In this document: positions 41,329 through 43,875 of the stretch, piece after piece
How positions within the stretch are numbered: position 1 is the first letter of the stretch
How the letters are laid out: every line of letters begins with the position of its first letter
DNA from: an uncultured Clostridia bacterium
GTDB lineage: Bacteria > Bacillota > Clostridia > Christensenellales > UBA1242
Assembly (NCBI GenBank): GCA_934754495.1
Contig: CAKVHW010000005.1
Location: 26,533 to 90,532 of the forward strand
Length of the DNA: 64,000 bases
Direction of reading: 5' to 3'
Made by a program: the position numbers and the translations under genes
Notes under the pieces: generated by a model
The model's database searches: none
What the model was told of the DNA's origin: nothing
Seen by the model: the letters and a program-made list of their open reading frames with translations, nothing else

Positions 41329-43875
41329 ATGGAAAAAAACAAGAAAAGGAAAATTTACATAGCTGTAATGAGTGTGCTGTTGGTACTTACTTTTGTTGCC
41401 ACCAGTACTTTTACTTTATCCTTTTTTGGTTCTTCTGGCTCTGGTACTAGTAAAATTACTCTAGGCAATGCTGTTACGGTAGATAGTTCCGTAACAGTAT
41501 CTACTGCAAATCTTTATGTCCTTCCAAGCCAAAAGGTTGTTGTAAATGCCACAGCCACTGTAAAATCAGAAGGCAAAAGCACCCCAACACCAGCACTTTT
41601 AAGGGCTAGAATAGATGTTGTCACAACAGCCCCATCAGTAAAACACACCATAGAAGATAGCATCACATTAGATAGTGCTAAGGCGTATTGGGTAAAAGCT
41701 GAAGACGGCTATTTTTACCTTATGAGTTCTAATAGTTCTACAGGCACTCTTACTACAATTTCACCAGGCACAACAGGTAAGGCTGTTCCACTTAACATAA
41801 CAGTAAATATACCAGATACTCTTACAAATGCCGACAATGGCAAAATATATAAAATATCAGTAACCTTCTGTGCTATTCAAGGAATAATTTATTCTTCTGA
41901 TGGAATTAATCCAATTACAAACTCTATTGGAAACACTAAAGAAATTTTCAACAATGTTGAAGGTACTTCAGGACAAGGAGAAGAAAAAACTCTTACTAAA
42001 TATGAAATTCAAGGCAACACCCAACTTTCTAATTCACCAAGCCCAAACAACCCAGCAACAATCACTAGTGTAGGTGAGGGTGGTGGCAAAAACTTGTTTG
42101 ACCCAAGTAAGGTGAATGCATTTAATAGTTCCGGACTTACAATCCGATATTCAGCAGAAGAAGATTGCTTTGTTATTAATGGAAAACCAACAACTACCAT
42201 TGCAGACTATTCTCAATATCTAAATATTCCAGTAGACAAAACGGCAAAATATAGCCTATCAGCATATTATGTAAGCGGTGCAATTGACCGCTCGACATCA
42301 TCTAGTACAGCCAAATATGCTGTTGCTTATTTTGGTAAAAACGATACAATAAATCAATATACAAATTGGCAGACTACAAATCTAGAAAATTACGAGACTT
42401 CAAAAGTTAATGTGACTTGTGATAAAAACTATATTACTCGATTCTGGTTTTACATCAATGACGGCATAACATTTAACAACTACAAAGTTCGTATTCAATT
42501 AGAAAAGAATAGTACAGCCACTGCTTATGAAAGTTATAAAAGTGTCAACATTGAATACTTAGGTTCTGACGGAACTAATCTTGTTGTAAATGGTGATGGT
42601 CGTCTTAACAACAATACAAACTTTACATCTTTTACTTACTCCGAAGACTCCACAAGTCCTACTGGTAGTAAATTTACAAAAACTAGTTCTACATATTTAG
42701 CACAAACAACAAACTTAATTAGTGTAGATACATCTGCTGAATATGAATTAAGTGCATATGTTAAGGCCGAAGCAGGCACTGGCACAAATTACTATGCTGG
42801 TTATGCTTGCTATGATATAGACAAAAAAGTTATAGGTGCAACTAATATTTATCACTTTATGAATAGTACAACATATCTTACTCAAGAACTTAAAAATGGT
42901 GATACAGTTGTGCACTTGGATAATGTGAGCGGATTTTCGGTTGCTTCATCAACACCTACATACCAACGTGGTTTTATTTTCTGGAACTACAAAGATAGCA
43001 CAGGATATCAGTATCCAATTAGTACCTATTCAAGAAATGTTTGGGATAATTTGTATGATTATGGTGCTATTAACACGACAAACAATACAATTACTTTAAA
43101 ATCAGCATGGACACATGGAACATTTGCAAAGGGCACATACTTATCACAATCAAACTCTGGTAGTGGCTTAACTTATTGTTTGCAGGGTGGTGGTAAAGCA
43201 CCAACAACTTGGACATATAAATCAATCAATGTTCAAGGGCTTACTCACAGCGATGGTGGTTTGCATTTTAGATATGGTACACGATATATAAAGCCATTCT
43301 TAATGGACGGCGGTTCTGATAAGTTCTCTTGGACTGGTATTTCATTTAAACGTGTTGGCGAAAATTATAGTATAAACCTTGCTGGACACGAGCCACTTCG
43401 CCGTGTTTCCGACACTGTTTATGATTACATCGATTCGTCTACAGGCACACTTACACGTAAAGTTGGGGTTTATAAGTTTACGGGTGATGAAACATGGTCT
43501 TATGAAGCCAATGCAGGAGTTGGTTTGTATTGGACACCTATTACAGGCAGAAAAGCTGCATTTGATTGCGCAATGATAAGTTCACATTTCTCTTTTGTTG
43601 CGTCATCTATTTCTGCACCTAACTATGGTTGTTTTAGAAGTGGGGCTAGTACAAATACTATGTTTGCATTTAATGTTAAGGGTGATGTAAATGCTTGGAA
43701 AGCTTATCTTAAAGCACAGGCAGCTGCAGGTACACCAGTAACTTTATATTATGAGTTGGCTACACCAGTAACCGAAAAGGTATCTTGCCCAACAATAAAG
43801 ATATCTACTAATGGCTCTAATATCTATAATGCTACATCTTCTGGTGCATTCCCAATTCTAAAAATCACTGAATAA
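41329..43875 (+). CDS. Secreted chimeric protein: TasA/camelysin-like N-terminal domain with SipW-type signal, plus phage tail-fibre/receptor-binding-like C-terminal modules
   Basis: 848-aa uninterrupted ORF with its own promoter and terminator. N-terminus KKRKIYIAVMSVLLVLTFVATSTFTLSFFGSS, then a beta-rich domain ending VTFCAIQG. C-terminal motifs YEIQGNT..PSPNNPATITSVG..KNLFD, QLEKNSTATAYESY, NLVVNGDG, GTPVTLYYELATPVTE. Confidence 0.8.
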   Translation: MEKNKKRKIYIAVMSVLLVLTFVATSTFTLSFFGSSGSGTSKITLGNAVTVDSSVTVSTANLYVLPSQKVVVNATATVKSEGKSTPTPALLRARIDVVTTAPSVKHTIEDSITLDSAKAYWVKAEDGYFYLMSSNSSTGTLTTISPGTTGKAVPLNITVNIPDTLTNADNGKIYKISVTFCAIQGIIYSSDGINPITNSIGNTKEIFNNVEGTSGQGEEKTLTKYEIQGNTQLSNSPSPNNPATITSVGEGGGKNLFDPSKVNAFNSSGLTIRYSAEEDCFVINGKPTTTIADYSQYLNIPVDKTAKYSLSAYYVSGAIDRSTSSSTAKYAVAYFGKNDTINQYTNWQTTNLENYETSKVNVTCDKNYITRFWFYINDGITFNNYKVRIQLEKNSTATAYESYKSVNIEYLGSDGTNLVVNGDGRLNNNTNFTSFTYSEDSTSPTGSKFTKTSSTYLAQTTNLISVDTSAEYELSAYVKAEAGTGTNYYAGYACYDIDKKVIGATNIYHFMNSTTYLTQELKNGDTVVHLDNVSGFSVASSTPTYQRGFIFWNYKDSTGYQYPISTYSRNVWDNLYDYGAINTTNNTITLKSAWTHGTFAKGTYLSQSNSGSGLTYCLQGGGKAPTTWTYKSINVQGLTHSDGGLHFRYGTRYIKPFLMDGGSDKFSWTGISFKRVGENYSINLAGHEPLRRVSDTVYDYIDSSTGTLTRKVGVYKFTGDETWSYEANAGVGLYWTPITGRKAAFDCAMISSHFSFVASSISAPNYGCFRSGASTNTMFAFNVKGDVNAWKAYLKAQAAAGTPVTLYYELATPVTEKVSCPTIKISTNGSNIYNATSSGAFPILKITE

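Follow-up and report, generated by a model that had tools for sequence, protein, structure and literature searches.

The gene and its chromosomal setting

The window analysed here is a stretch of 64,000 nucleotides from an uncultured Clostridia bacterium (contig CAKVHW010000005.1), and its subject is a forward-strand open reading frame (ORF) with an ATG start that encodes 848 amino acids (aa) plus a stop codon (41329..43875, +). A first-pass annotation had described the product as a TasA/camelysin-type secretion domain joined to phage receptor-binding-like modules, and every motif that it quoted was located in the ORF: the basic stretch, the hydrophobic helix, the motif behind the helix, VTFCAIQG, and the motifs of the modules. 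The ORF is not a chance reading frame, since homologues over its full length are known from other assemblies at 51-95% identity. Its G+C content is like that of the adjacent genes, which are those for Rrf2, cysteine desulfurase, and NifU on the 5' side and a complete 16S rRNA gene (44481-46006) on the 3' side. The gene order dprA-topA-trmFO-hslV-hslU-thiF-trx-rrf2-iscS-nifU-[gene]-16S recurs in independent assemblies, and in at least six assemblies obtained independently, all from one uncultured clade of gut Clostridia, the long gene occupies the position between nifU and 16S, in none of them within a prophage. A continuous long ORF with the same synteny is found in L014, L015, L020, L021, and L023, which come from different samples and assemblers. 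The concern, raised with the first description, that homologues in relatives might lie inside prophages is thus answered by long-form homologues that are chromosomal and syntenic throughout. By its housekeeping genes the window is assigned to an uncultured lineage of gut Clostridia, for which the nearest metagenome-assembled genomes are labelled 'uncultured Clostridia' or 'Christensenella sp.', several of them from Hadza samples, with TopA identity up to 92%. No integrase, phage gene, or repeat was found flanking the gene, and the window ORFs that were checked include no phage, pilus, or signal-peptidase gene and, as first noted, neither sipW nor a tasA-operon partner; the remainder are housekeeping genes.

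The gene appears to have a promoter and a terminator of its own, as the first-pass annotation had stated. A terminator hairpin with a 15-pair stem (41186..41219, +) closes the rrf2-iscS-nifU operon and sets it apart from the 848-aa gene, and within the 143-nt gap past this hairpin lies a putative sigma-70-like promoter, TTGCCA-17-TATAAT (41257..41285, +), that matches at 11 of 12 positions. Sites of this type show no overall enrichment across the region (11 found versus 15.7 expected); the hexamers of the putative promoter are kept in four of six related lineages, with L014, L012, and L015 keeping both and L013 and L022 not. A purine-rich ribosome-binding region, GGGATAGGGTAG (41316..41327, +), stands directly 5' of the ATG and is retained in relatives as TAGGGTAG or TAGGGGAA. 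Directly past the stop codon, the sequence and a hairpin scan identify an intrinsic terminator, GCACTCC-GATAAT-GGAGTGT followed by a T-run (43880..43905, +).

The N-terminal signal and head domain

The protein begins with the basic segment MEKNKKRK, a 20-residue hydrophobic stretch, and then TFTLSFFGSSGSGTS at aa 27-41; the predicted signal peptide covers aa 1-31 (41329..41421, +), up to the cleavage point in TLS|FFGS. The cleavage site is placed there by its register with TWA|AFND of Bacillus subtilis TasA, as aligned by hhalign with alignment A2 (E 6.5e-4, probability only 27%; TasA sequence verified against 8aur). The segment that follows, aa 32-212 (41422..41964, +), with VTFCAIQG at aa 178-185, is assigned as a beta-sandwich head of the TasA/camelysin/BsaA type on the basis of profile searches, Foldseek, and stand-alone orthologues. 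A profile of the head built from six orthologues and searched against 1.84 billion representatives retrieves 181 clusters, mostly of 200-250 aa, and it is through these intermediates that the known families are reached: of 85 family members, nine match Peptidase_M73 (PF12389; best E 1.4e-9), 15 match the SipW-cognate signal model TIGR04088 (best E 3.7e-12), six match the BsaA model, and four match the TasA model, while five match B. subtilis TasA by phmmer. AlphaFold models the head as a beta-sandwich, and a Foldseek search with the full-length model returns the TasA fibre 8aur_A (probability 1.0, E 1.3e-3). The intermediate profiles, with the fold of the full-length model pointing the same way and with no direct Pfam match, thus bear out the TasA/camelysin-type N-terminal domain of the first description, and we place the head in the TasA/camelysin/BsaA superfamily as a divergent member.

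The export signal is less clear-cut. The motif behind the hydrophobic core is graded across the family, from TLSFFGS in the 848-aa protein through TLAYFGD and TMAYFGG to the canonical TLAYFTD; relative to T-x-A-x-F-x-D, the sequence T29-L-S-F-F-G-S keeps the T and the F and has S in place of both A and D. The SipW-dependent signal first proposed has a motif in register and a graded family in its favour, but it is degenerate, and TIGR04088 does not match the 848-aa protein itself; cleavage by a SipW-type peptidase would be expected from the alignment. Conservation of the head in the orthologue alignment peaks just past the hydrophobic core, at aa 29-51, a stretch that corresponds by register to the donor strand of TasA, residues 28-38 (PMC9674648). 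Within it, aa 32-51 are a candidate donor strand, and the low predicted local distance difference test (pLDDT) values of aa 29-51 in the monomer model are as expected of a strand that rearranges.

In having a putative signal motif directly past the hydrophobic core, a conserved N-terminal strand, and a predicted beta-sandwich of about 180 aa, the protein resembles TasA (B. subtilis), CalY/camelysin (B. cereus), and BsaA (C. perfringens), the SipW-dependent subunits of biofilm fibres, and its head-only orthologues (about 215 aa) match TasA or CalY in size. Unlike these proteins, it has TLSFFGS for TxAxFxD and no adjacent sipW or tapA operon, and unlike their characterised members it bears a 630-aa C-terminal extension of phage-like modules. 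A scan of the 848-aa protein against PDB sequences gave nothing for the head, and an hhalign comparison aimed at the head and limited to six close orthologues was uninformative. The best Foldseek matches of the first head model are the chaperone-usher pilins EcpA and AfaE, which are weak and which we leave uninterpreted. An intermolecular isopeptide lock of the kind defined for BsaA by an N-E-K triad (PMC11580942) was considered and ruled out, as the orthologues lack a conserved triad (N47 is invariant, with no invariant Lys or Glu among them). A metalloprotease was likewise ruled out by the absence of HExxH from the sequence.

The C-terminal modules, their relatives, and their alleles

The head is followed by a linker, aa 213-255 (41965..42093, +), with pLDDT below 50, that contains the connector motif xIxGNxxxxxSPSPxxPAxIxSVGxxxKNLFD (seen here as YEIQGNT..PSPNNPATITSVG..KNLFD at aa 225-258). 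The motif precedes modules family-wide and recurs in P0011, P0026-30, P0035, and the phage protein P0020. Three beta-rich modules come after it, which the first-pass annotation had likened as a whole to phage receptor-binding proteins; this holds clearly for module 2, is indicated for module 3 by its relatives, and is weak for module 1. Module 2, aa 406-680 (42544..43368, +), with NLVVNGDG at aa 417-424, resembles a carbohydrate-binding module (CBM) and shares homology with the proteins by which Herelleviridae baseplates bind the host. In sequence searches it is matched by phrog_6613, a 'tail protein' family (E 6.7e-17), and, in tblastn, by the genomes of 70 Herelleviridae phages, at identities of 33-41% (E about 1e-36); it superposes on BFVD models with a root-mean-square deviation of 2.0 A over 273 columns. 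Its model is confident, with pLDDT values that for the most part exceed 90 across aa ~420-660 and drop to some 74-79 at aa 680, and its Foldseek matches include the folds of CBM16 (template-modelling score, TMt, 0.65), CBM22, and CBM4, in agreement with the likeness to carbohydrate-binding domains first suggested from the motif. The homologue in phage Deep-Blue is Gp186, the host-binding part of the baseplate spike, for which four CBMs are predicted (PMC11406892). Gp186 and the other Herelleviridae host-binding proteins of phrog_6613, whose N-proximal part is what matches module 2, differ in being about 1460 aa long, encoded among baseplate genes, and devoid of a signal peptide, whereas in the 848-aa protein the module is one of three on a cellular protein that is predicted to be secreted. 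A metagenomic homologue of module 2, the tail fibre P0019, is encoded behind Baseplate_J in a prophage where genes for terminase, portal, and integrase are also present.

Module 1, aa 256-405 (42094..42543, +), is a beta-rich, jelly-roll-like cassette that ends in RIQLEKNSTATAYESY, contains QLEKNSTATAYESY at aa 390-403, and is hypervariable between alleles. It is common to cellular proteins, both pilin-headed and anchor-headed, and to one phage-like protein, P0007, and a link to phages can be drawn from these sequences weakly at best. Module 3, aa 681-820 (43369..43788, +), is conserved at its two ends, EPLRRVSDTVYDYID... and ...WKAYLKAQAAAGTPVTLYYELATPVTE, and variable in its centre (alignment A4), with GTPVTLYYELATPVTE at aa 801-816. 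One relative, P0020, lies within a siphovirus tail region, and another is a 1324-aa tail protein encoded downstream of Dit and Tal on the IMG/VR contig L106 (BLASTP E 1e-11); a profile of module 3 matched no solved structure. Homology of module 3 to phage tail proteins is thus supported by sequence, as a weaker link than that of module 2. On L106 (6129-11694), a reverse transcriptase gene (phrog_1423) directly follows the gene of the 1324-aa tail protein with its module-3-like segment, which suggests a diversity-generating retroelement aimed at that tail protein. The last 28 aa of the 848-aa protein (43789..43872, +) have low pLDDT and contain neither LPXTG nor a membrane anchor; a sortase-anchored adhesin was ruled out on this ground, the C-terminus reading ...GAFPILKITE without LPXTG.

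The fusion of head and modules is unusual in a core chromosomal position, as was first remarked, and its chromosomal, syntenic placement is confirmed, but it is not a one-off: the 848-aa protein is a member of a large modular family. The head also occurs as a stand-alone protein of 210-220 aa in the same nifU-16S slot of sister species, and these head-only orthologues end at ...IFNxVEG(Y), the exact point where the 848-aa protein carries on. Close relatives present further architectures, namely head, linker, and module 3 (P0035) and head, linker, a different jelly-roll, and a module-3-like end (P0026, P0027, P0029, P0030), and other TasA-like heads bear BspA-type leucine-rich repeat (LRR) or DUF6273 tails. 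Homologues of modules 1-3, in turn, are found in ordinary chromosomal contexts attached to the heads of type IV prepilins (PF07963) or to other anchor heads. On L018 (287-3427), an anchor-headed module-1 protein (P0011) is followed at once by a 487-aa N_methyl pilin-like protein with a copy of module 1, so that one cassette type is carried by two different heads in adjacent genes. On L016 (8900-13885), the homologue of module 1, P0018, has sporulation genes around it: a spoIIAA-sigF-like STAS/sigma-factor pair on one side and the spoVA operon on the other.

Housekeeping genes place the long-form and short-form lineages in a near-star radiation. In a tree of head domains rooted on the sister clade, the long-form L015 is basal (75% bootstrap) and the short forms fall into one weakly supported clade (57%), from which the long architecture is probably ancestral within the clade and the short head-only genes are probably losses. 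No such gene follows nifU in the next outgroup, and the DNA past the stop codons is too diverged to reveal how long and short forms interconverted. Conspecific alleles are mosaic: head, linker, and the C-terminal 28 aa are 100% identical, whereas single cassettes differ sharply. Module 1 has just 72-73% identity to alleles P0002 and P0003, which are otherwise 97-100% identical, and in P0004 it is the centre of module 3 that differs, with 59% identity, a 20-aa insertion, and a resemblance to the L015 type. Between species, module 2 diverges fastest (61% identity in L014 versus 87% for the head). Recombination that exchanges ligand-binding surfaces would be expected to produce such a cassette pattern.

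Interpretation, alternatives, and neighbouring features

The 848-aa protein is most likely a variable surface adhesin, and we give slightly better than even chances to its being, more specifically, a modular surface or fibre subunit of the TasA family on which glycan-binding modules are displayed and can be exchanged. The TasA/camelysin (SipW-cognate) type of N-terminal signal would direct export, and the head of about 180 aa would either polymerise by donor-strand exchange or hold the protein at the membrane or at an existing fibre, by analogy with TasA and BsaA. From the C-terminal end of the head, the flexible linker would project the three beta-rich modules, which appear to be of the type with which phages, through their tail fibres and baseplates, attach to polysaccharides of the cell surface; the protein could then act as a glycan-binding adhesin whose ligands may be of that kind. 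Its specificity would be altered by cassette swaps, affecting the core of module 1 and the centre of module 3 between alleles and whole modules between species. The LRR_5 tails on other members of the head family indicate a shared role in adhesin display; such tails are also those of BspA-type LRR proteins, and the 848-aa protein itself has no LRR.

Several results weigh against this reading. A Pfam scan of the 848-aa protein returned no family at E<=1, and an NCBIfam scan returned no TasA, BsaA, or M73 match. Because the ten nearest relatives tested also match no TasA, M73, or SipW model, the link between the head and TasA is transitive, and the head-family profile misses TasA among PDB sequences. 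The pLDDT of the head is low (about 70), as is the TMt of its match to the TasA fibre (0.39), and for the first AlphaFold2 head model (pLDDT 70) TasA was outside the Foldseek top 50. The signal motif lacks the Asp that is conserved in SipW substrates, and the 64-kb window holds no sipW, no tapA-like gene, and no second TasA paralogue. Modules 1 and 3 have no PHROG match and no tblastn match in GenBank phages even at E<=1, and module 1 has no IMG/VR relative. Carbohydrate binding by the modules is suggested by their fold, the sole basis for it, and the CBMs of Gp186 are themselves predicted. An appendage of 630 aa on each subunit might also hamper the packing of a fibre.

The absence of any wall anchor leaves room for a different role, in which the modules fix the protein to the wall by binding the producer's own wall polysaccharide and the head, as donor or acceptor of a strand, starts or anchors a fibre of TasA-like subunits encoded elsewhere in the genome. 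Wall glycopolymers of Gram-positive bacteria are the typical targets of phage CBM and receptor-binding modules (PMC11406892), and phage receptor-binding proteins and endolysin binding domains bind wall polysaccharide likewise. B. subtilis TapA, which has a TasA-like part and anchors fibres (PMC9674648), offers a precedent for such an anchor or nucleator, and BsaA/TasA paralogues often co-occur, suggesting heteropolymers (PMC11580942). Like the 848-aa protein, TapA joins a TasA-related N-terminal part to a different C-terminal region and serves as a fibre accessory, but its C-terminal region does not consist of CBM-like or phage-like modules, and it is encoded in the tasA operon. Against this role, a family hidden Markov model finds no second TasA-like ORF in the window, the same slot in sister species holds a protein of head size only that resembles a major subunit and not an anchor, and allele-level replacement of cassettes suits changing external ligands better than a constant wall polymer of the producer; we consider an anchor of this kind unlikely. 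A shade less probable again is a surface lectin that does not polymerise, with an uncleaved signal-anchor and the TasA-like domain as the stalk of a monomer or trimer tethered to the membrane. Such a lectin would fit the length of the hydrophobic core, the lack of the canonical Asp in the signal motif, the absence of a nearby sipW among the window ORFs checked, and the trimeric state usual for modules of phage tail fibres. Oligomers of BsaA have also been reported as membrane-anchored (PMC11580942). The conservation of aa 29-51 above all other parts of the head is, however, what a cleavage site and donor strand would lead one to expect, and the family grades continuously into canonical SipW substrates.

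Two further explanations fare far worse. The phage relatives of modules 2 and 3 and the head-only genes at the same site in sister species could be taken to mean that the gene is a prophage remnant, or an assembly chimera of a small TasA-like gene and a phage tail-fibre gene. The same ORF and synteny in five lineages from independent samples and assemblers, the lack of any flanking phage gene, integrase, or repeat, the G+C content shared with the neighbours, and a junction that follows the family-wide connector motif all argue otherwise. The recurrent synteny and the otherwise housekeeping content of the window exclude a prophage or a misassembly, and this explanation is effectively refuted. 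The gene is outside any phage or prophage structural module, and its product begins with a signal peptide and a TasA-like head in place of a virion-attachment domain. Least probable of all is that the protein is a type IV pilin or pseudopilin bearing an adhesin module. Many homologues of modules 1-3 do bear PF07963 N_methyl heads, but the 848-aa protein has no PF07963 match and its head belongs to a different family; the absent G|FTLxE prepilin motif refutes this explanation for it. With TasA similarity and phage homologues both found and the gene outside a prophage, the reading as a modular TasA-family adhesin retains what was proposed at the outset, with one reservation: the idea of a chimera stands, but 'domesticated phage protein' overstates the case, since transfer from phage to cell as against cell to phage is not established.

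To our knowledge, TasA-family fibres have so far been described as plain structural biofilm scaffolds. Full-text literature searches found no paper that joins TasA, SipW, and tail fibres, and none on TasA-like adhesins in Clostridia. In modular type IV pilins such as PilB and PilC of S. sanguinis, a binding module is grafted onto a filament-subunit head (PMC8179133, PMC9934059), and the 848-aa protein is alike in combining a filament-subunit-type head with a grafted module, as are the N_methyl pilin heads that carry homologues of modules 1-3 in related gut Firmicutes. It differs in belonging to a TasA-like and not a type IV filament system and in the modules that are grafted. If the favoured reading is true, the protein would be the TasA-system counterpart of the 'modular pilins' (PMC8179133), and with a TasA-family subunit whose phage-type glycan-binding modules can be exchanged, the modular pilin principle would reach a second class of filament. 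A gut Clostridia lineage that is uncultured and has a reduced genome would also gain a candidate adhesin. Traffic of modules between phage host-recognition proteins and cellular surface proteins is documented here, and the allele-level replacement of cassettes amounts to a natural set of specificity variants. A broader conjecture, which we regard as rather unlikely, is that gut Firmicutes run a general plug-and-play surface display, in which a pool of phage-tail-type cassettes with a common connector is shuffled by recombination between phage tail fibres and the heads of two cellular filament subunits that are unrelated to each other, TasA-like and type IV pilin. Bacteria might then redirect their fibres towards mucus, diet, or other bacteria, or employ them as phage-receptor decoys, with the modules that their phages use and at the pace of those phages.

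Other features of the window and its relatives are recorded here for their own sake. The arrangement of nifU, the gene, and 16S is likewise present in L013 and L022. In L015 (~12700-13300), the intergenic region between the long gene and 16S is longer than in other lineages and holds a G+C-rich, apparently structured insert that the others lack. The 16S gene of the window (44481-46006) is solitary, with no 23S or 5S within 18 kb downstream (to 64000), and is part of an unlinked rRNA operon. In the usual polC slot, past the M50 protease gene and before rimP-nusA-infB, there is an ORF of 522 aa (56485-58053) with an oligonucleotide-binding (OB) fold and a 3'-5' exonuclease domain and without polymerase domains; it may be a split or truncated PolC, and the contig index records no gene with exactly this product. 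The first protein-coding genes past 16S start at 46385. Three ORFs have neither a Pfam match nor a signal peptide: those of 190 aa (46385-46957) and 209 aa (46979-47608) lie between the 16S gene and rplM-rpsI, and that of 259 aa (49104-49883) lies past rpsI and a lone tRNA gene (48901-48973, -), which is situated between rpsI and the ORF at 49104.

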